This document shows positions 2,378 through 40,447 of a DNA stretch of 64,000 nucleotides, piece by piece. The translations under genes and the position numbers were made by a program. This stretch comes from Candidatus Babelota bacterium. GTDB lineage: Bacteria; Babelota; Babeliae; Babelales; JAHIUU01. Positions within the stretch are counted from its first letter, which is position 1. Every line of letters begins with the position of its first letter. The notes under the pieces are model-generated. The model did not search any database. It was not told the origin of the DNA and saw only the letters and a program-made list of their open reading frames with translations. The stretch lies in the NCBI GenBank assembly GCA_018817025.1, contig JAHIUU010000003.1, positions 16,854 through 80,853 of the forward strand. Reading direction: 5' to 3'.

Positions 2378-3907
2378 GTGCATGCAAAAGTTTTTTCTGC
2401 CACAACAATAGGAATAGATGCCCACCCCGTTGAGGTCGAGGTTGACCTCTCGATGGGCATAGTTGGCTTTTTTATTGTTGGTCTTCCTGACAAAGCGATT
2501 AGAGAGAGCAAGGATCGTATTCGAGCCGCAATAAAAAATAGTAAACTGCGCTTTCCTCTGCGAGTAATTACGGTCAATCTTGCACCTGCAAACTTAAAAA
2601 AGCAGGACATTCTGTTTGACGTTCCAATTGCAATCGCAATTTTACAGGCATCAAGAGTGCTATCAATCGATCCAGAATTTATTAATGAAACGCTTTTTCT
2701 TGGAGAGCTTTCTCTTGACGGGACCATTCGTCCAGTTTGTGGCGTTCTCTCAATAGCTCATACAGCTTTGAAGATGGGAAAGAAGAGATTAATTGTTCCT
2801 AAAGCGAACACCAGAGAAGCAAGCCTAATCAAGGGGATCGAGGTCATTGGCCTTGAAAACCTAGGCGAACTTGTTTCATATCTTAAAAATGAAACCTCAA
2901 TTACTCCAACGCCCTCGACCTTCGACTCATTTCAAGGGGCGATAAAAAGTCATCCGCTCGATTTCCGCCAGGTTAAGGGACAATGGCAAGCGAAGCGGGC
3001 GCTTCAAATTGCAGCGGCTGGCCGTCATAATATTCTATTTATTGGCCCCCCAGGTTCCGGTAAGACGATGCTTGCAAAACGACTTGCGACTATTCTTCCC
3101 GCAATGTCATTTAACGAAGTAATCGAAACAACAAAGATTTACTCTATTGCAGGTATGCTTAGAGATACCACGCTTATTGTTCATCGTCCATTTCGCTCCC
3201 CACATCATACGATATCTCAAGCCGGTCTTGTTGGTGGAGGCTCCAATCCTAGGCCAGGTGAAATTAGCCTCGCAAACAATGGCGTTCTATTTCTTGATGA
3301 GCTTACAGAATTTACCCGGTCGACCCTCGAGGTTTTACGGCAACCGCTCGAGGGGAAACAGGTGCTTATTTCACGCGCAAACATGTCGGTTGAGTATCCG
3401 GCATCGTTCCTGCTCATTGCAGCCCTTAACCCATGTCCGTGCGGTTACTTTGGCGACAAGTCAAAAAAGTGTTCTTGTTCTGAGCCGCAGATTAAAAAGT
3501 ATATTGGCAAACTGTCTGGGCCGTTGCTCGATCGAATCGATCTTCATGTAAATGTCATGTCGATCGATTATGACGAATTAAAAAATAAAAAAGAACAAAG
3601 CAAAGGGTCTCAAGAAATGTTTGACGAAGTGATGCGGGCCGTTGAGTTTGGCAAAAACCGACATGGTCAAGTAGCTAACGCAAACCTCACGTCTGACCAA
3701 GTCGAACAATTTTGCATGCTCTCGCCACCAGCAGAACGGATCATCAAGCTTGCGTTTGAAAAACTTCATCTAAGCATGCGTGGTTACCACAAGATTTTGA
3801 AAATTGCACGGACAATTGCTGATCTTGCTAACTCAGACACCATTGAACAAACCCATATTCAAGAGGCGATCATGTATCGCTCGTTAGACCGGGAGGAGGG
3901 CACATGA
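2378..3907 (+). CDS. comM: Mg-chelatase-like AAA+ ATPase ComM/YifB
   Basis: N-terminal Lon-like domain 'VFSATTIGIDAHPVEVEVDLSMG'. Walker A 'GPPGSGKTM', 'VLFLDELTEF', a Cys cluster 'CPCGYFGD..KCSCS', and C-terminal 'SMRGYHKILKIARTIADL'. Confidence 0.9.
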   Translation: MHAKVFSATTIGIDAHPVEVEVDLSMGIVGFFIVGLPDKAIRESKDRIRAAIKNSKLRFPLRVITVNLAPANLKKQDILFDVPIAIAILQASRVLSIDPEFINETLFLGELSLDGTIRPVCGVLSIAHTALKMGKKRLIVPKANTREASLIKGIEVIGLENLGELVSYLKNETSITPTPSTFDSFQGAIKSHPLDFRQVKGQWQAKRALQIAAAGRHNILFIGPPGSGKTMLAKRLATILPAMSFNEVIETTKIYSIAGMLRDTTLIVHRPFRSPHHTISQAGLVGGGSNPRPGEISLANNGVLFLDELTEFTRSTLEVLRQPLEGKQVLISRANMSVEYPASFLLIAALNPCPCGYFGDKSKKCSCSEPQIKKYIGKLSGPLLDRIDLHVNVMSIDYDELKNKKEQSKGSQEMFDEVMRAVEFGKNRHGQVANANLTSDQVEQFCMLSPPAERIIKLAFEKLHLSMRGYHKILKIARTIADLANSDTIEQTHIQEAIMYRSLDREEGT

Positions 3908-4344
3908 CAACAATAGGAACCGACATTGTTTCGGTCGAGCGGTTTGAGGCGTGGGGTGACTATTCGTATGATCAGATGAGACACGTTTTCTCAAAGCAGG
4001 AGCTTGCTTATTGTAAACAGGATAGCTCGTACAAGTATGCTTCGTTGGCAGCTCGCTTTGCCGCGAAAGAAGCGTTCTTTAAAGCGTTAAGTGCGATGCT
4101 GGTGAAGCTAGATTTGACCGAGCATGAATTTACCCTTCTGTTTTTATGTCAGCGTGTACAGGTCAAGAAAACAACCTGGGACGTGCCGGTGCTTGTTGTC
4201 GATTGGCAGGAGATTGAAAAAAAAATACAAACAACTCTTCCTAAATTGCAGGTTGAATTGTCGATATCACACGAAAAAAAATATGTGGTTGCTTTTGTTG
4301 TCCTAGGGCTTCCCTGCGGGGGGGTTAAGGGCGGGTCACCCTAG
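3904..4344 (+). CDS. acpS: Holo-[acyl-carrier-protein] synthase
   Basis: 'IGTDIVSVERFE', 'AARFAAKEAFFKAL' and 'ELSISHEKKYVVAFVVL'. ATGA overlap with comM. The last ~12 codons and the stop lie inside a REP-like repeat. Confidence 0.85.
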   Translation: MTTIGTDIVSVERFEAWGDYSYDQMRHVFSKQELAYCKQDSSYKYASLAARFAAKEAFFKALSAMLVKLDLTEHEFTLLFLCQRVQVKKTTWDVPVLVVDWQEIEKKIQTTLPKLQVELSISHEKKYVVAFVVLGLPCGGVKGGSP

Positions 4345-4379
4345 GCTGGCAGGATGGCAGTCGCCCTAGGGGGGCTCCC
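4302..4379. repeat. GC-rich REP-like palindromic element, left flank of the transposase
   Basis: CCTAGGG (4302-4308) pairs with CCCTAGG (4339-4345) around an inner CCC-TGCG-GGG hairpin. It is followed by GCAGTCGCCCTAGGGGGGCTCC (4358-4379), which reappears inverted at 4834-4855. Confidence 0.75.
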
Positions 4380-4405
4380 GTCGAATGGTTTGAGAAAGGG
4401 TTTGC

Positions 4406-4822
4406 ATGGGTCAAAGTTATGTAGCTTTGTATTTTCATTTAATATGGACAACGAAAAAACGAGAGCGTTATTTCTCTTCCTCTGGAAAAATAAGATTGTA
4501 TGATTATGTGAAAGATATGGTCGAAAGAAAGGTTGTTGAGTTGCTTGCCATTGGTGGGATGGCCGAGCACGTTCATCTTCTTGTGTGCATGAAGACCGTT
4601 GATGCGATTGCTGATTTTATGGCCTATATCAAACCTGCCTCCTTAGGTTTTGTTAAACGGGCTGGTAAAAATTGTGACTGCTTTTCTTGGCAAAAGGGAT
4701 ACGCTGTTTTTTCTGTGAGCGCTTCGCATGTCGGTTACTTGAGACGATACATTTGTAATCAGGAGAATCATCACAAGATCTGGAGCTTTGATGAGGAGTT
4801 AGATTTTTTCTTGAATTTTTGA
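4406..4822 (+). CDS. IS200/IS605-family Y1 (HUH) transposase, RAYT-like
   Basis: 138 aa. 'YFHLIWTTKKRE', HUH motif 'EHVHLLV', 'FSWQKGYAVFSVS' and the catalytic Tyr motif 'RYICNQENHH'. Confidence 0.9.
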   Translation: MGQSYVALYFHLIWTTKKRERYFSSSGKIRLYDYVKDMVERKVVELLAIGGMAEHVHLLVCMKTVDAIADFMAYIKPASLGFVKRAGKNCDCFSWQKGYAVFSVSASHVGYLRRYICNQENHHKIWSFDEELDFFLNF

Positions 4823-4833
4823 CAAACGCTATA

Positions 4834-4855
4834 GGAGCCCCCTAGGGCGACTTGC
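4834..4855. repeat. REP-like inverted repeat, right flank of the transposase
   Basis: The reverse complement of GGAGCCCCCTAGGGCGACTTGC matches 4358-4379 apart from two single-base indels. Confidence 0.75.
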
Positions 4856-4874
4856 TCAGGATACACAAAACATT

Positions 4875-6485
4875 ATGGGAGATGCTGTGCGTCGAAAAAG
4901 ATTAGGTCATATTTTGGCCGGTTCATTGGTAGAGGGATTAGTAATGCGACTTGATTCGTCGTGTGATCTTGAGTCGGTCAAGACAGGTAAGTTTGTTTGT
5001 GTTCAGGGGAAAGAATATAATTTCTTTTCGCTTATTACTGATCTTGAGTTGCAGGTGACGAATCCTGATATTTTACTCTTTCCGCCAGAGGAAGATGAGG
5101 CTCTTTTGAAACAGGTGCTACAGAAGCGTGATATCTATGCAAAAGCCAAGCTTCGTCCCATGTTAATGTTGGACAAGCGCGGGAGGCATATGCCGGTCAA
5201 GACGATACCAACTCACTTTGCGACAGTGTTCGAGGCGAGTCGCGATGATGTGGCGCTTATTTTTGGGGATGAACGGGAGGGAGAAAAGTATTTCAGCATT
5301 GGAAAACCGCTTGATATGGAAACGCCGGTTTGCGTTAATATGGACTTATTGACCGAGCGAAGCAATGGTATTTTTGGAAAGACTGGAACGGGAAAAACAT
5401 TTTTGACTCGTTTGATTTTGGCCGGGCTGGTCAGAAGTGGGCGTGCAGTTAACTTGATTTTTGATATGCATAGTGAGTATGGATTGCAAGCTCGTAAAGA
5501 GGGCCCAGGTAACTCTTTTGTGAAAGGGCTGAAGACGTTGTTTCCTGATAAAGTTGCAATTTTTTCACTAGACCCAGAGTCAACGCGCCGACGAGGTGGC
5601 TCGCCTGACTTTGAGGTAACCTTAAGCTATCAGGATATTCGGGTTGAAGATGTGATGCCATTGCAGGGAGAACTCAATTTGCATCCAACGGCCCTTGAGG
5701 CAGCATATTTGATTGCAAGTAAATATCGTAAAGATTGGTTGTGTATGCTGTTGGCGCAAGATGGGACGGTCAAAGAGTTTGCTGAGGACGTCGGGGCTCA
5801 CGCAGAGTCGGTTGGGGCCCTGTACAGAAAGTTAAAGCGGCTTGAGCGATTTGCGTTTTTGAAGAAAGGTGGGCTAGAGAAATCTGTCATTGATACGATG
5901 ATTGAGTATTTAGATAGGGGTATTCACGTGGTGCTGGAGTTTGGAAATCACACGTCAATGCTATGTTATTTATTAATAGCTAATATTATTACGCGTCATA
6001 TTCACGATGCGTATATGACCAAGACGGAAAAATTTCTATCATCGCAAAAAAAAGAAGATGAGCCGCGTAAGTTAATGATTACGATTGAGGAGGCCCATAA
6101 GTTTTTAAATCCTCAAGCGGCACGGCAAACGATTTTTGGGGTTATTGCGAGGGAAATGCGTAAATATTATGTGTCGCTATTGGTGGTTGATCAAAGGCCG
6201 TCCGGGATTGATCAGGAGATTATTTCTCAAATTGGTACGAAGATTGTGGCATTACTTAACGACGAGAAAGATATTCAGGCGGTTTTGACCGGGGTAAATA
6301 ATTCGAGTGGTTTACGTTCTATCTTGGCGACATTGGATACGAAAAAGCAGGCACTTATAATGGGTCATGCGGTGCCGATGCCGGTGGTAATTAAAACGCG
6401 AGAGTATGACGACGTTTTTTATAAAGACCTTGGTTGTATGATTGGCGAGAGAGAGGTTAAAGAAGCTATAGAAGAAATTTTTTGA
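4875..6485 (+). CDS. HerA-like (DUF87/FtsK-HerA superfamily) ATPase
   Basis: N-terminal HAS-barrel-like 'GHILAGSLVEGLVMRLDSS...GKFVCVQ'. Walker A 'GIFGKTGTGKTFL', 'MITIEEAHKFL', and Walker B-like 'YYVSLLVVDQRPSGID'. Confidence 0.75.
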   Translation: MGDAVRRKRLGHILAGSLVEGLVMRLDSSCDLESVKTGKFVCVQGKEYNFFSLITDLELQVTNPDILLFPPEEDEALLKQVLQKRDIYAKAKLRPMLMLDKRGRHMPVKTIPTHFATVFEASRDDVALIFGDEREGEKYFSIGKPLDMETPVCVNMDLLTERSNGIFGKTGTGKTFLTRLILAGLVRSGRAVNLIFDMHSEYGLQARKEGPGNSFVKGLKTLFPDKVAIFSLDPESTRRRGGSPDFEVTLSYQDIRVEDVMPLQGELNLHPTALEAAYLIASKYRKDWLCMLLAQDGTVKEFAEDVGAHAESVGALYRKLKRLERFAFLKKGGLEKSVIDTMIEYLDRGIHVVLEFGNHTSMLCYLLIANIITRHIHDAYMTKTEKFLSSQKKEDEPRKLMITIEEAHKFLNPQAARQTIFGVIAREMRKYYVSLLVVDQRPSGIDQEIISQIGTKIVALLNDEKDIQAVLTGVNNSSGLRSILATLDTKKQALIMGHAVPMPVVIKTREYDDVFYKDLGCMIGEREVKEAIEEIF

Positions 6486-36259: not shown

Positions 36260-36520
36260 GAGTCGACCTTTTTTGTAAACCATACCATTAATCCATATCG
36301 TGGGCAATTTTTCGCTGTTGGATCGCCCGTTGACGGTCTGAACCTGCTGGTTATCAGGCTATAGAAGCGGTCGTTACAAACTTTGTTGCTTTTATGAAAA
36401 CGAATCATTTAGACTAACAACTGAACCTGCGAGTTGATGTTTTGCGACTTGAAGGGGGGCTTAAAAAAGAAAAAACAATCATTTCTGCGTTCATACTACC
36501 TTGAAGGGGGGGAGATACTT

Positions 36521-38872
36521 ATGGATGAGCAAAAAAAGTTCTTGGAGGAGATACCACAGATTTTGCCTGTTATCCCAACAATTGATGTGCTTGTTTTTCC
36601 CAATATGGTTGTTCCGCTACTTGTTTTAGATGAAAAAATTATTAACGGTATTCGTGAGGCACTTGACGGAAATAAGATGGTATTGTTGTTGGCTGCAAAA
36701 TCTCAGGAAGATGGCTACCAAGGCCCGATTGGAGTTCAGGACCTCTACTCCATTGGGACGGTTGCAACGATTATGCGGGCGATGGATTTGCCAGACGGTG
36801 GGATCAAGGTGTTGACTCAGGGGGTTGTTAGAGCGAGAGTTGGCGAGATTTATCCTGATCAGGATATTCTGCGTGCAACGGTAAGCAGCATCCCATTTAA
36901 AAAAGCAAGTCAACCTCCTGAAGTTCTCGAAAGTAAGATCAGAAAAATTGCGGCGATGGGAGAGCGTGTAAGTGAGGCTGAAGGTTTTCTCGGGGCTGAC
37001 TTTCAGGCGATTCTATCGCAGATGGAGGACCCGGAAAGAATGATCACGTTCATTCTATCTCACGTTAATTTACGGGTAGACCAGGCGCAAAATTTGTTGG
37101 AAAAAGACACTTTAGATGATTTAGTCGATAGTGCACATGAATGTCTTGGATCTCACTTAGAAGTTGCAAAGGTCGAGGAGCAGATTCGAACTGATACGCG
37201 AGAGCAAATCAACAAGTCGCAACGAGAATATTATCTGAGGGAACAGTTGAGGGCGATTCAGAAGGAACTTGGTGAGGAGGGCGACTCCGAGCTTGAGGCA
37301 TTCAAGAATAATATTGATAAGATGCCGCTTTCTGATGAGGCAAAGACTGAGGCGTCACGACAAATCAGACGATTAGAGCGAACGAGTCCTGACTCGTTAG
37401 AGGCGACCGTTTTGCGCAACCATCTTGAATGGTTACTTGCGATGCCGTGGGGGGTTGAGACCAAAGAAAAAATTGATATAAGAAAGGCAAAAGAGATTCT
37501 TGATAACGATCATTACGGCTTGAATTTAGTAAAAGACAGGATCCTGGATTATCTATCGGTTATGTCTTTAAAGGAAGATTGTCATGCGCCAATATTATGT
37601 CTGGCTGGTCCTCCTGGCGTTGGAAAAACATCGCTTGGTCGTTCGATAGCTCGTAGCATGGGACGAAACTTTGCACGGTTATCACTTGGTGGTGTTCATG
37701 ATGAATCAGAAATTCGGGGGCACCGTCGGACCTATGTTGGGGCGTTGCCAGGGCGATTTGTTCAGGCGATTCGTCGAGCTGGAAGCTCTAACCCCCTGAT
37801 TATGATTGACGAGATAGACAAGATTGGTGCTTCTGGGAAGGGTGATCCATCGTCGGCGTTACTCGAGGTGCTTGACCCGGAACAAAACGGTAGCTTTTAT
37901 GATAATTATTTGGGTGTGCACTTCGATCTTTCTAAAGTGATGTTTGTTGCGACAGCCAACAACTTGATGATGATCCCTGGGCCACTGCGCGACCGCATGG
38001 AAATTATACAATTGGCTGGATATACCTACGAAGAAAAGTTAGAGATTGCAAAGCGACATTTAGTTGAAAAATCTATAGATTCGTCAGGCTTGGGTGATAG
38101 GGGTGTTTCTTTTCCTGATGAAGTTATTAGCGAATTGATTCACGGTTATACTCATGAGTCAGGAGTTCGGGATTTAGAGCGACATGTGCAAAAGCTTTGT
38201 TCCAAGTATGCACGAGCACTATTGGAAGACGAAAGGAACGTCTCGTTTACGTTAGAGAATTTACCAAACTTCTTAGGCGCTCGTCTTAACCCTACAGATG
38301 AATCGAACCATGAGGATAAGATTGGCGTTACAAATGGTCTTGCGTGGACACCGGTTGGAGGAGAGGTTCTTCAGGTTGAAGCGGTGTTGATGCCGGGCTC
38401 TGGAAAGTTATTGCTGACTGGCCAGCTTGGTGATGTGATGAAAGAGTCTGCGCAGGCTGCGGTAACGTATGCCCGGGCGCATGCTGATGAGTTTGGCATT
38501 GATAGGAAAGTTTTCACGGACTATGACTTGCATATCCATCTGCCGGCAGGAGCGATTCCAAAAGATGGACCCTCTGCTGGAATAACGTTATTATCATCAA
38601 TTTTTTCGGTGTTGACCAGTCGCCCCGTCAACTGTGATTTTGCAATGACAGGAGAGCTCAACCTTCAGGGTAACGTACTTCCTATTGGTGGGTTAAAAGA
38701 GAAAATATTAGCGGCCAAGCAGTATGGGCTCAATAATATTTTGCTTCCGAAGCAGAACAAAAAAGATATGATCGATCTAGATGGTGTTGAAAAGGGACTT
38801 AAAATCCATTGGGTTGACCATGTTGACGAGGTACTCAACTTCGTGTTGCTTCCTAACGGTAAGCTTGCTTAA
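36521..38872 (+). CDS. lon: ATP-dependent Lon protease
   Basis: A strong SD sequence precedes the ATG at 36521. 'LPVIPTIDVLVFPNMVVPLLV', Walker A 'GPPGVGKTS', and the protease active-site region 'PKDGPSAGITL'. Confidence 0.95.
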   Translation: MDEQKKFLEEIPQILPVIPTIDVLVFPNMVVPLLVLDEKIINGIREALDGNKMVLLLAAKSQEDGYQGPIGVQDLYSIGTVATIMRAMDLPDGGIKVLTQGVVRARVGEIYPDQDILRATVSSIPFKKASQPPEVLESKIRKIAAMGERVSEAEGFLGADFQAILSQMEDPERMITFILSHVNLRVDQAQNLLEKDTLDDLVDSAHECLGSHLEVAKVEEQIRTDTREQINKSQREYYLREQLRAIQKELGEEGDSELEAFKNNIDKMPLSDEAKTEASRQIRRLERTSPDSLEATVLRNHLEWLLAMPWGVETKEKIDIRKAKEILDNDHYGLNLVKDRILDYLSVMSLKEDCHAPILCLAGPPGVGKTSLGRSIARSMGRNFARLSLGGVHDESEIRGHRRTYVGALPGRFVQAIRRAGSSNPLIMIDEIDKIGASGKGDPSSALLEVLDPEQNGSFYDNYLGVHFDLSKVMFVATANNLMMIPGPLRDRMEIIQLAGYTYEEKLEIAKRHLVEKSIDSSGLGDRGVSFPDEVISELIHGYTHESGVRDLERHVQKLCSKYARALLEDERNVSFTLENLPNFLGARLNPTDESNHEDKIGVTNGLAWTPVGGEVLQVEAVLMPGSGKLLLTGQLGDVMKESAQAAVTYARAHADEFGIDRKVFTDYDLHIHLPAGAIPKDGPSAGITLLSSIFSVLTSRPVNCDFAMTGELNLQGNVLPIGGLKEKILAAKQYGLNNILLPKQNKKDMIDLDGVEKGLKIHWVDHVDEVLNFVLLPNGKLA

Positions 38873-38876
38873 TTTT

Positions 38877-38924
38877 TCCTAGGGCTTCCCTTCGGGGGTT
38901 TTAAGAGCGGGTTGGGGGCTCTAG
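38877..38924. repeat. REP-like element, second copy
   Basis: TCCTAGGGCTTCCCTTCGGGGGTTTTAAGAGCGGG... aligns with 4301-4335 (TCCTAGGGCTTCCCTGCGGGGGGTTAAGGGCGGG). It starts 5 nt after the lon stop. Confidence 0.7.
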
Positions 38925-39056: not shown

Positions 39057-40112
39057 ATGGAGAGCAAGATGGCAAAAAATACAAGTAAGCAGAGCGTTGT
39101 AATGATTGGCGGTGCAACACGAGATATATATTTACAGTATCATGGAGCCGATTGCATGAGCATAACGGAGCGTGATTGCGAGCGACGGTATATGTTGTTC
39201 GAGTCGGGGGCCAAGGTTGAGGTTGAAGATGTTCTGTATTACACCGGCGGAGGGGCTACCAATTCGGCTGTTTCATTTAAGCGCTTAGGTTTTGACGTTA
39301 CCTGTTTCTGTATGATCGGTGATGATGAAGCTGGTCACGCTGTCTTACAAGATCTAACAAGCGAGGGTATTGATACGAGTAGTATTACCGTCTCCCAGAC
39401 TCATGCCTCAGGAACGTCGTTTGTTGTTAATTCACTACGCCGAGATCGGACGATTTTTGCCTATCGAGGGGCAAACGGGTTTCTGGCAGAAGAAAACATC
39501 GATTTAGATTTGATTGAGAACGCAAGTCAGCTGTACATAACTTCTCTCAGTCACGAGTCGTCGCAAATGCTCAGTACGATTGGGGCGTATGCGAAGAAGC
39601 ACAACATTCCTGTTGCGGTTAATCCAGGAATTAGCCAGCTATCGACAGGGGCTCAAGAGCTTAAGAAGTCGCTTAAATACATCGACATTCTTATTTTGAA
39701 TTGTTCAGAGGCCAAAACGTTTATGGGCGCGTTAGCCGAGCAGTCACGGGAGTCGTTATATTTTAGTGTTCCAAATTTCTTCAAAGAGGTTATGGGAATA
39801 GGGCCTCGGATTGCTGTAGTGACCGATGGAGCCCAAGGTGTCTATGTTGCGACGAATAATACCGTCTATTTTCACCCTAGCATGTCGGTTGAGGTTGTCG
39901 ATACGCTTGGCGCAGGCGACTCATTTGGCTCCTGTTTTGTTGGTTGCCTACGTCGGGGCATGGGCATTGAGGATGCTTTACGGTGTGGGATTGTTAACAG
40001 TGCTTCGGTGATTGGTCAGTTTGGTGCCAAACCGGGCCTTTTGTCGTACGACCAGCTTCAGAGGCGAGTTAAAAATATAAAGCCGGGCCTATTACAAAAA
40101 AACTTGCTGTGA
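39057..40112 (+). CDS. PfkB-family carbohydrate/nucleoside kinase (ribokinase-like)
   Basis: 'GGGATNSAVSFKRLG' and the C-terminal PfkB signature 'DTLGAGDSFGSCFVGCL'. Confidence 0.8.
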   Translation: MESKMAKNTSKQSVVMIGGATRDIYLQYHGADCMSITERDCERRYMLFESGAKVEVEDVLYYTGGGATNSAVSFKRLGFDVTCFCMIGDDEAGHAVLQDLTSEGIDTSSITVSQTHASGTSFVVNSLRRDRTIFAYRGANGFLAEENIDLDLIENASQLYITSLSHESSQMLSTIGAYAKKHNIPVAVNPGISQLSTGAQELKKSLKYIDILILNCSEAKTFMGALAEQSRESLYFSVPNFFKEVMGIGPRIAVVTDGAQGVYVATNNTVYFHPSMSVEVVDTLGAGDSFGSCFVGCLRRGMGIEDALRCGIVNSASVIGQFGAKPGLLSYDQLQRRVKNIKPGLLQKNLL

Positions 40113-40447
40113 GGCGAGTCTGTCTTGTGATTAGTTGTGACAAGCTGCGTATTTGTCAGTTGAGTCGACGGGGAGATTTTTTTATTGGCGAGTTTTGCCG
40201 GGAACTCCCCCTAGGGGCGCTTGATGTTTGTGAGGGAGTTGTGTATAACTTCTCAAACTTATATCGCTTAATTGTGAACTTTTTGGATGAGCATCGATTG
40301 CATGGAGTGAGGGCGATTGTTTGTTGCCCGTATCTTGCTTCTTCTATGGGCTTGAAGCGTAAGTTTGCTCTATTTCAGATTTCGTTATGTGTGAGCAAGA
40401 CTGGCCTAAGAATCGACAAATTACTTGATGAGGACTTACTTTCGTGA
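40109..40447 (+). CDS. Hypothetical; short PilM/GspL-N-terminal-like fragment (tentative)
   Basis: 112 aa, with GTGA overlaps at both ends. The N-terminal pattern loosely resembles the first subdomain of PilM. It is far shorter than a PilM (~350 aa). Confidence 0.25.
   Translation: MRRVCLVISCDKLRICQLSRRGDFFIGEFCRELPLGALDVCEGVVYNFSNLYRLIVNFLDEHRLHGVRAIVCCPYLASSMGLKRKFALFQISLCVSKTGLRIDKLLDEDLLS

Follow-up and report, generated by a model that had tools for sequence, protein, structure and literature searches.

A probable Y1 transposase cassette of subclass 1.2 with inverted hairpin arms at an acpS/herA junction in a Candidatus Babelota genome

The stretch of DNA analysed here, referred to as the window, comprises 64 kb of contig JAHIUU010000003.1 from a Candidatus Babelota bacterium (assembly GCA_018817025.1, positions 16,854 to 80,853 of the forward strand), and the element in question is a cassette of ~555-585 nt within it that consists of a transposase gene (tnpA) and its own inverted arms. 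The neighbours of the cassette are housekeeping genes, in the order Mg-chelatase-family ATPase gene, acpS, cassette, HerA-like ATPase gene (herA), ompH-like gene and others. An earlier note on this DNA had read the locus as a repetitive extragenic palindrome (REP)-associated tyrosine transposase (RAYT) bracketed by inverted REPs, with a dispersed REP copy behind lon. The features on which the present analysis rests are the following, in coordinates of the window.

4302..4385, + strand: left arm, in which a 36-nt core (4302-4337) is followed by the linker GGCTGGCAGGATGGCA and then by the region of the inner hairpin; further copies of the core lie at ~38878 and in metagenome contig L002, and the linker and hairpin are homologous to the arms of a related cassette, L005.
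4360..4378, + strand: left inner hairpin gtc-GCCC-taggg-GGGC-tcc, a match to the hairpin descriptor and half of a 15-nt perfect inverted repeat.
4406..4822, + strand: tnpA, an intact gene for a Y1/HUH transposase of TnpAY1 subclass 1.2 type, 138 aa, as judged from Pfam, NCBIfam, a structure match, an alignment and the motif table of PMC6006769.
4834..4855, - strand: right arm, ~22-25 nt, consisting of the inner hairpin gtc-GCCC-tagg-GGGC-tcc alone (stem-loop 4837-4848), recognized by the inverted match and the descriptor.
3904..4344, + strand: acpS (Pfam ACPS), the left side of the insertion site, whose frame enters the left arm and ends in the tail ...AFVV-LGLPCGGVKGGSP followed by the stop codon.
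4887..6485, + strand: HerA-like ATPase gene (DUF87; gene call and Pfam DUF87), the right side of the insertion site.
38878..38924, + strand: solo partial left arm in the spacer between lon and the next gene, made up of the core and then GGGGGCTC (38914-38921), with no intact hairpin.

The 138-aa open reading frame (ORF) had been identified as a Y1 transposase with the motifs HVH and YICNQENHH, and this identification holds. Pfam Y1_Tnp covers the whole length of the protein (E 1.9e-21) and is its sole Pfam match, and the two motifs occupy residues 55-57 and 115-123. The catalytic residues are H55-V-H57 (within EHVH), W95-Q96, Y115, Q119 and H122-H123; in an alignment of homologues (A1), H11, HVH, WQ, Y115 and H123 are invariant. 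Close homologues are few (35-51% identity). The protein passed the NCBIfam IS200 model NF033573 (57.6 bits, cut-off 55) and failed the NCBIfam REP_Tyr_transpos model NF047646 (22.1 bits, cut-off 80). In a search of the PDB the nearest solved structures were those of ISDra2 TnpA (2xm3, E 4.6e-9) and IS608 TnpA (E 4e-5); the structure of E. coli RayT was not returned at E <= 1, and direct comparison with the RayT of the MG1655 record revealed no significant similarity (BLASTP E 0.08; hhalign probability 0.3%). In the published classification of Y1 transposases, class 2, the RAYTs, carries Y---NP and subclass 1.1, IS200, carries Y[IV]ENQ (Quentin et al. 2018, PMC6006769). The tyrosine motif of the window TnpA is Y---Q--HH (Y115-I-C-N-Q119) and not Y---NP. 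Because of this motif, the failed REP model and the RayT BLASTP value, the window transposase is, judged by its sequence, not a member of the RAYT family. What stands of the proposed RAYT between inverted REPs is the intact Y1/HUH gene, the inverted hairpin layout and a partial recurrence of the left flank, whereas the protein assignment does not (Y---Q; 22 bits against 80).

Subclass 1.2, which has been little studied, is described as carrying the motifs DH[IV]H, WQ and YIKNQKEHH; its proteins have a median length of 148 aa, its copy number is low, and its members come mostly from Cyanobacteria and Bacteroidetes (PMC6006769). Assigned by motifs, the window protein and its homologues fit TnpAY1 subclass 1.2. 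The window TnpA shares with it [D/E]H[IV]H (with E for D), WQ, Y---Q--HH and a short protein of 138 aa, it has neither a tnpB partner nor IS200-type ends, and its gene is single-copy in the 82.6 kb of genome sequence examined for copies, that is, the 64-kb window, 9.7 kb upstream (L089) and 8.9 kb downstream (L090). It differs from the subclass as described in its inverted hairpin arms, its Dependentiae host and a shortened C-terminal tail. The proximal part of the ~30-aa C-terminal domain of subclass 1.2, SFDEELDFFLNF, aligns in the window TnpA; the distal tail (…HGV-EYDE-YVF) is missing from it and from the homologues P0002-P0004, and the window protein stops 15 residues past HH. The exact 138-aa protein forms a one-member cluster and is on record once, on one 155,546-bp contig of an ENA metagenome assembly, where NCBI names it an IS200/IS605 transposase of a Candidatus Dependentiae bacterium.

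The arms lie in inverted orientation on either side of the gene. As the earlier note had described, the 22-nt GCAGTCGCCCTAGGGGGGCTCC (4358-4379) and the reverse complement of 4834-4855, GCAAGTCGCCCTAGGGGGCTCC, are two single-base indels apart; the match resolves into a perfect inverted match of 15 nt (4359-4373 / 4838-4852) and one of 9 nt (4370-4378 / 4834-4842), offset by one base. The inverted partner reached a local-alignment score of 17, compared to top scores of 10-13 in 12 Markov-shuffled windows. The hairpin descriptor matched the window at 4363-4375 (+) and 4837-4848 (-) only, two sites that face each other across the gene (shuffle mean 0.23). CCCTAGGG was over-represented in the window, with 3 found versus 0.44 expected, the arms being two of the three, and the CCTAGG hexamer was not (11 found versus ~10 expected). 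The two arms are unequal, the left being ~84 nt and the right ~25 nt, and nothing in the right arm corresponds to the 36-nt core. One further hairpin candidate at 40199-40222 (GGAACTCCCCCTAGGGGCGCTTG, resembling the right-arm hairpin) scored 14 compared to a null maximum of 13, but it lies inside an ORF (40109-40447) and failed the descriptor, and it is probably a chance match.

The left flank had also been described as a nested palindrome. Its motifs are all present, namely CCTAGGG (4302-4308), CCCTAGG (4339-4345) and CCC-TGCG-GGG, but in the two other copies of the core the outer CCTAGGG/CCCTAGG stem is either imperfect or missing, and single-strand DNA folding of both flanks gave predictions at shuffle level (z -0.4 to -1.8). 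Because these z-scores are indistinguishable from those of shuffles, we relied on comparative conservation and not on energy.

Homologous cassettes carry inverted arms of their own: 60 nt at 95% plus a 31-nt inner pair in L003, 75 nt at 88% in L005, 57 nt at 74% in L004, and 27 nt perfect plus 15 nt in L088. The arms of L003, L004 and L005 are symmetric (57-75 nt), unlike the asymmetric arms of the window. The gene-proximal part of the arm is homologous between cassettes (window GGCTGGCAGGATGGCAGTCGCCCTAGGGGGGCT, L005 GGCTTGCAGGAAAGGGTCGCCCCAGAAGGGGCT), and a hairpin with a 4-5-bp GC stem, a (T)AGR loop and an (A/G)TC foot is conserved across them in the form GTC-GCCC-TAGG-GGGC. Its stem shows compensatory changes between cassettes (GCCC/GGGC, GCCCC/GGGGC, GTCC/GGAC, GCTC/GAGC and ACCC/GGGT), which were read directly off the arm sequences; the MAFFT arm alignments A2 and A3 are ungapped and have the 4-5-nt loops out of register. 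The canonical REP head GT[AG]G is not at the foot of the hairpin, where (A/G)TC stands instead, with a loop of T0-2AGR(D).

The cassette behaves as an insertion and not as a vertically kept domesticated gene, because the same site is empty in the closest relatives. Among five related acpS/herA junctions, whose herA orthologues have 83-91% identity, four were empty: L086 (HerA 91%), L092 (88%), L093 (86%) and L087 (85%). In all four, herA follows acpS by 0-34 nt, with no transposase, no core and no hairpin between them. AcpS orthologues without the cassette end 3-9 residues past ...AFV(V/I); in the window, the left arm (4302-4344) supplies the last 13-14 codons of acpS together with its TAG stop, which lies within CCCTAGG. 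The fifth junction, L088 (JGI contig Ga0366824_1000369; HerA 83%), holds at 9335-9931 another subclass 1.2 gene with arms of its own. The L088 transposase is 148 aa long and 35% identical to the window TnpA, and its TAA stop lies in the loop of the right inner hairpin. The occupancy of L088 would reflect either independent insertions at one site or an old residence with losses.

As a side observation, JGI sample 3300041086 holds both L087, with its empty acpS/herA junction, and L003, both of them Dependentiae-type contigs. The cassette of L003 (P0004, 41% identical) is flanked by a DHH-family gene on one side and a type II secretion ATPase gene on the other, and its arms overlap the end of the upstream gene.

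Presence or absence of the unit as a whole among relatives would also be expected of an ordinary IS200-type insertion sequence, with subterminal hairpins on the same strand and multiple copies elsewhere, in which case the copy behind lon would be a decayed end. The window TnpA passed the IS200 cut-off and has IS200/IS605 transposases as its nearest structures, IS200 (subclass 1.1) offers the closest catalytic core, with the HUH and Y---Q metal/tyrosine set, and IS200 elements are likewise small and consist of tnpA alone. However, IS200 ends are same-strand hairpins without inverted arms, whereas the end hairpins of the window cassette are inverted. IS200 is multi-copy with near-identical copies, and no second copy of the gene occurs in the sequence examined. 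The Y---Q--HH signature and the low-copy family also differ from subclass 1.1, the exact protein forms a cluster of one member on one contig with its nearest homologue only 49% identical, and plasmids and phages carry hardly any close relatives. We regard an ordinary IS200 element as very improbable.

We next consider the core of the left arm, whose recurrence just after lon the earlier note had reported correctly. The 36-nt core at 4301-4336 recurs at 38877-38912 with 32/36 positions identical (blastn-short E 5e-6), beginning 5 nt past the stop codon of lon (36434-38872). A 21-nt degenerate core pattern has 2 matches in the window compared to 0 in 100 shuffles, and the local-alignment score of the copy is 27 compared to a null maximum of 13. 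The GGGGGCTC that follows the core may be the 3' half of the inner hairpin. Within the sequence examined the copy after lon is the only dispersed copy, and there is no intact dispersed hairpin, no doublet and no second gene copy. Of the REP system that had been proposed, one dispersed copy is thus borne out, but it is a partial left arm that lacks the inner hairpin, no doublet of the kind termed REPIN occurs in this sequence, and the repeats are without the GT[AG]G head.

The 19-base core pattern CCTAGGGCTTCCCNNCGGGGG had no match in the GTDB species representatives, a set that thus does not include the source genome, and a single match in JGI metagenome contigs, in the unrelated contig L002 (JGI contig Ga0180007_10000073, 171 kb, of which 1.6 kb was read). 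There, a solo left-arm copy occupies 520-580, flanked by the stop of an SbcC/Rad50-like ORF on one side and by a convergent GIY-YIG nuclease-like ORF on the other; no SbcC orthologue for an empty-site comparison was present in the sequence examined. The L002 core is 35/36 identical to the copy after lon and runs on into GGCTGGCAGTCGCCCT (...TTACCCAAGGCTGGCAGTCGCCCT), ending in the 5' half of the hairpin, and the GGCTGGCAGTCGCCCT stretch is homologous to the transposase-proximal arms of L005. Because this copy continues from the core into the inner repeat, comparison of the sequences shows that the core forms a single unit with the inner repeat, namely the left arm, which argues against the core being an unrelated element. 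The L002 copy also differs from the window left arm by an 8-nt duplication in the latter (4344-4362), which reads GGCTGGCAG-GATGGCAG-TCGCC in the window and GGCTGGCAG-TCGCC in L002.

The positions of the core copies nevertheless bring in a different explanation, in which the 36-nt core is an independent element of gene 3' ends (a terminator, an mRNA stabilizer or another repeat family) and the transposase landed beside one copy. The start of each of the three copies falls in the interval from 43 nt before to 24 nt after a stop codon, in the orientation of the gene; in two of the three, TTTT follows CCC-TTCG-GGG; a core is missing from the right arm; and the solo copies have no inner hairpin. 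Set against these points are the continuation of the L002 core into GGCTGGCAGTCGCCCT and its homology to the L005 arms, and the lack of any core in the empty acpS/herA junctions. Moreover, no terminator-like site was found at the cassette or at the lon locus, and promoter-like sites were at shuffle level; the core has no Rfam match, and the T-run is lost in the acpS copy. All three core copies are oriented as the upstream gene and, given the positive GC skew throughout the window, as the leading strand, but with n=3 this is not significant (chance ~0.25). We judge an independent 3'-end element to be very improbable.

To place the cassette among its relatives we scanned the GTDB species representatives, which yielded more than 596 family loci, and analysed the best 80. 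These came from Planctomycetota, Acidobacteriota, Bacteroidota, Verrucomicrobiota, Chlamydiota and other phyla, with none from Dependentiae. With the window, L003, L004, L005 and L088 added, the set comprised 85 loci, of which 80 carry Y---Q--HH, and the median protein length was 150 aa. Inverted flanks were common: the best inverted flank match reached at least 30 bits in 59/79 loci and at least 40 bits in 40/79, compared to 2/79 and 0/79, respectively, when the left flank of one locus was paired with the right flank of another. Copies of a flank elsewhere in the same locus (<=19 kb) were found at >=40 bits in 17/69 loci versus 8/207 random blocks, and at >=60 bits in 14/69 versus 3/207. Doublets of the left and right arm of the local cassette, without the gene, were found in an Acidobacteria metagenome-assembled genome (MAG; L012, 6822-7031 and 11188-11280) and in an Ignavibacteriota MAG (L014, 13408-13624), and they resemble REPINs or miniature inverted-repeat transposable elements. 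Full-length relatives were absent from phages and very rare on plasmids, where 2 of 72,556 records, both ~600-kb replicons, had one. The inverted flanks, the nearby flank copies, the doublets and the near-absence from plasmids and phages together suggest that members of the family are often laid out and distributed as a RAYT-like system would be, despite their IS200-type catalytic signature.

In a Holophagales MAG (L053, 10400-12400), a ~2-kb tract downstream of the transposase is crowded with copies of the flank repeat. Among them are units of 224-253 nt and about ten of 26-32 nt, and Tandem Repeats Finder reported no regular array.

A genuine and possibly active REP/RAYT system, in which a single-copy transposase maintains a genome-wide population of REPs or REPINs, was the reading favoured by the earlier note. 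The window resembles RAYT/REP loci (the REPtron; E. coli RayT, or YafM; class 2) in having a single-copy Y1/HUH gene, intact, between inverted hairpin repeats, with a flank copied once elsewhere. A near-identical core in another genome (L002) and the many family members with dispersed arm copies and gene-less doublets nearby point the same way. However, the protein fails every RAYT sequence criterion, with Y---Q, a failed REP model and no similarity to RayT, and a GT[AG]G head is missing from its hairpin. Very few copies were seen: the 82.6 kb contain a single partial one, without any intact hairpin or doublet; the 19-base core pattern was found once in JGI metagenome contigs and never in GTDB representatives; and L003, L087 and L088 (~60 kb) carry no dispersed copies of their own arms. 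In addition, the gene is an insertion polymorphism and not a stably inherited locus. We therefore consider a REP/RAYT system of this kind unlikely.

Two further groups of known elements come close in description. The 'IS200 Group 3' is a subgroup of the IS200 family with RAYT-like properties, in that it lacks duplicates and copies on plasmids and its flanking 16-mers are abundant (Bertels, Gallie & Rainey 2017, PMC5581495); compared by description only, it matches the flanks, the flank copies and the near-absence from plasmids seen in the present family. The TIRYTs, like the window cassette, have a Y1 gene bounded by terminal inverted repeats (TIRs). They are mostly of class 2.1, ~240 aa long, with a C-terminal helix-turn-helix (HTH) domain and GGGG[AT][CG]A[CG] repeats (PMC6006769), whereas the window TnpA has 138 aa, Y1_Tnp as its sole Pfam match, and no such HTH or repeats.

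The reading that we favour, at a probability of roughly 0.65, is that of a single-copy, IS200-related Y1 cassette of subclass 1.2 whose hairpin arms are inverted and which has inserted between acpS and herA, partial solo arms being present elsewhere. Several points weigh against it. The occupancy of L088 could mean ancient residence with repeated loss and not recent mobility. The inverted repeat of the window is marginal at 30 bits, a level that the cross-locus null reaches in 2 of 79 pairs, and, as given above, the folds predicted for its flanks are no better than those of shuffles. The copy counts rest on 82.6 kb of genome. Both solo copies lack an intact inner hairpin and so need not be substrates of the transposase, and the classification table enters subclass 1.2 as 'REP: no' (PMC6006769). 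Finally, because its right arm measures ~25 nt and its left ~84 nt, the cassette may be crippled.

The integrity of the gene, the anatomy of the arms, the conserved hairpin, the insertion polymorphism and the solo arm copies are observed in the sequences. As to binding, cleavage and what moved what, we infer a mechanism by analogy with IS608 and ISDra2 TnpA and with E. coli TnpA-REP. A TnpA dimer would bind the arm hairpins in transiently single-stranded DNA, and would cut and rejoin it through Tyr115 with the HUH/Gln119 metal site. Since the arms are inverted, they would display one and the same hairpin-plus-foot on opposite strands, which is the arrangement around RAYT genes, in contrast to the single-strand arrangement of IS200. 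The cut is predicted at the foot of the hairpin (GTC) or within the CT/AG loop, given that the solo arm of L002 stops at ...GCCCT. The whole unit would have moved, or been gained, together, and the pieces of left arm that stand alone behind other genes would be either arms mobilized in trans or scars of earlier insertions. On present evidence the cassette would thus work like a small RAYT/REP or TIR-bounded system, while being no RAYT and not the source of a prolific REP family in this genome.

A bolder proposal, which we hold only tentatively and think somewhat doubtful, is that subclass 1.2, with each gene carrying inverted hairpin arms of its own, constitutes a second lineage of the REP/REPIN type with IS200-type catalysis, whose gene-less arm doublets would be spreading in many phyla, and that the cassette is still mobile and inserts repeatedly at the acpS/herA site of Dependentiae. 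The occupancy behind this reading of repeated insertion consists of two transposases, 35% identical, in two lineages, with the site empty in four others.

For annotation, the gene is best described as an IS200-related subclass 1.2 Y1 transposase cassette and not as a RAYT, and the evidence for a REP population in this genome is thin. More broadly, a group that has been classed as not REP-associated is usually bracketed by inverted repeats, and in about a quarter of its loci these repeats recur nearby, sometimes as gene-less doublets. Should this hold on complete genomes, the transposases that maintain REPIN-like repeat populations would gain an IS200-type branch, and the IS200-to-RAYT transition discussed by Bertels et al. 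would be easier to place. The occupied and empty junctions of Dependentiae provide a natural empty-site series from which the ends of the cassette and its target could be defined.

Two observations concern the window at large. Rfam at gathering thresholds returned zero matches over the whole 64 kb (no tRNA, rRNA or riboswitch). GC skew stays positive over nearly all of the window, and most of the ORFs and gene calls examined are on the + strand, so the window fits a single replichore with co-oriented genes.

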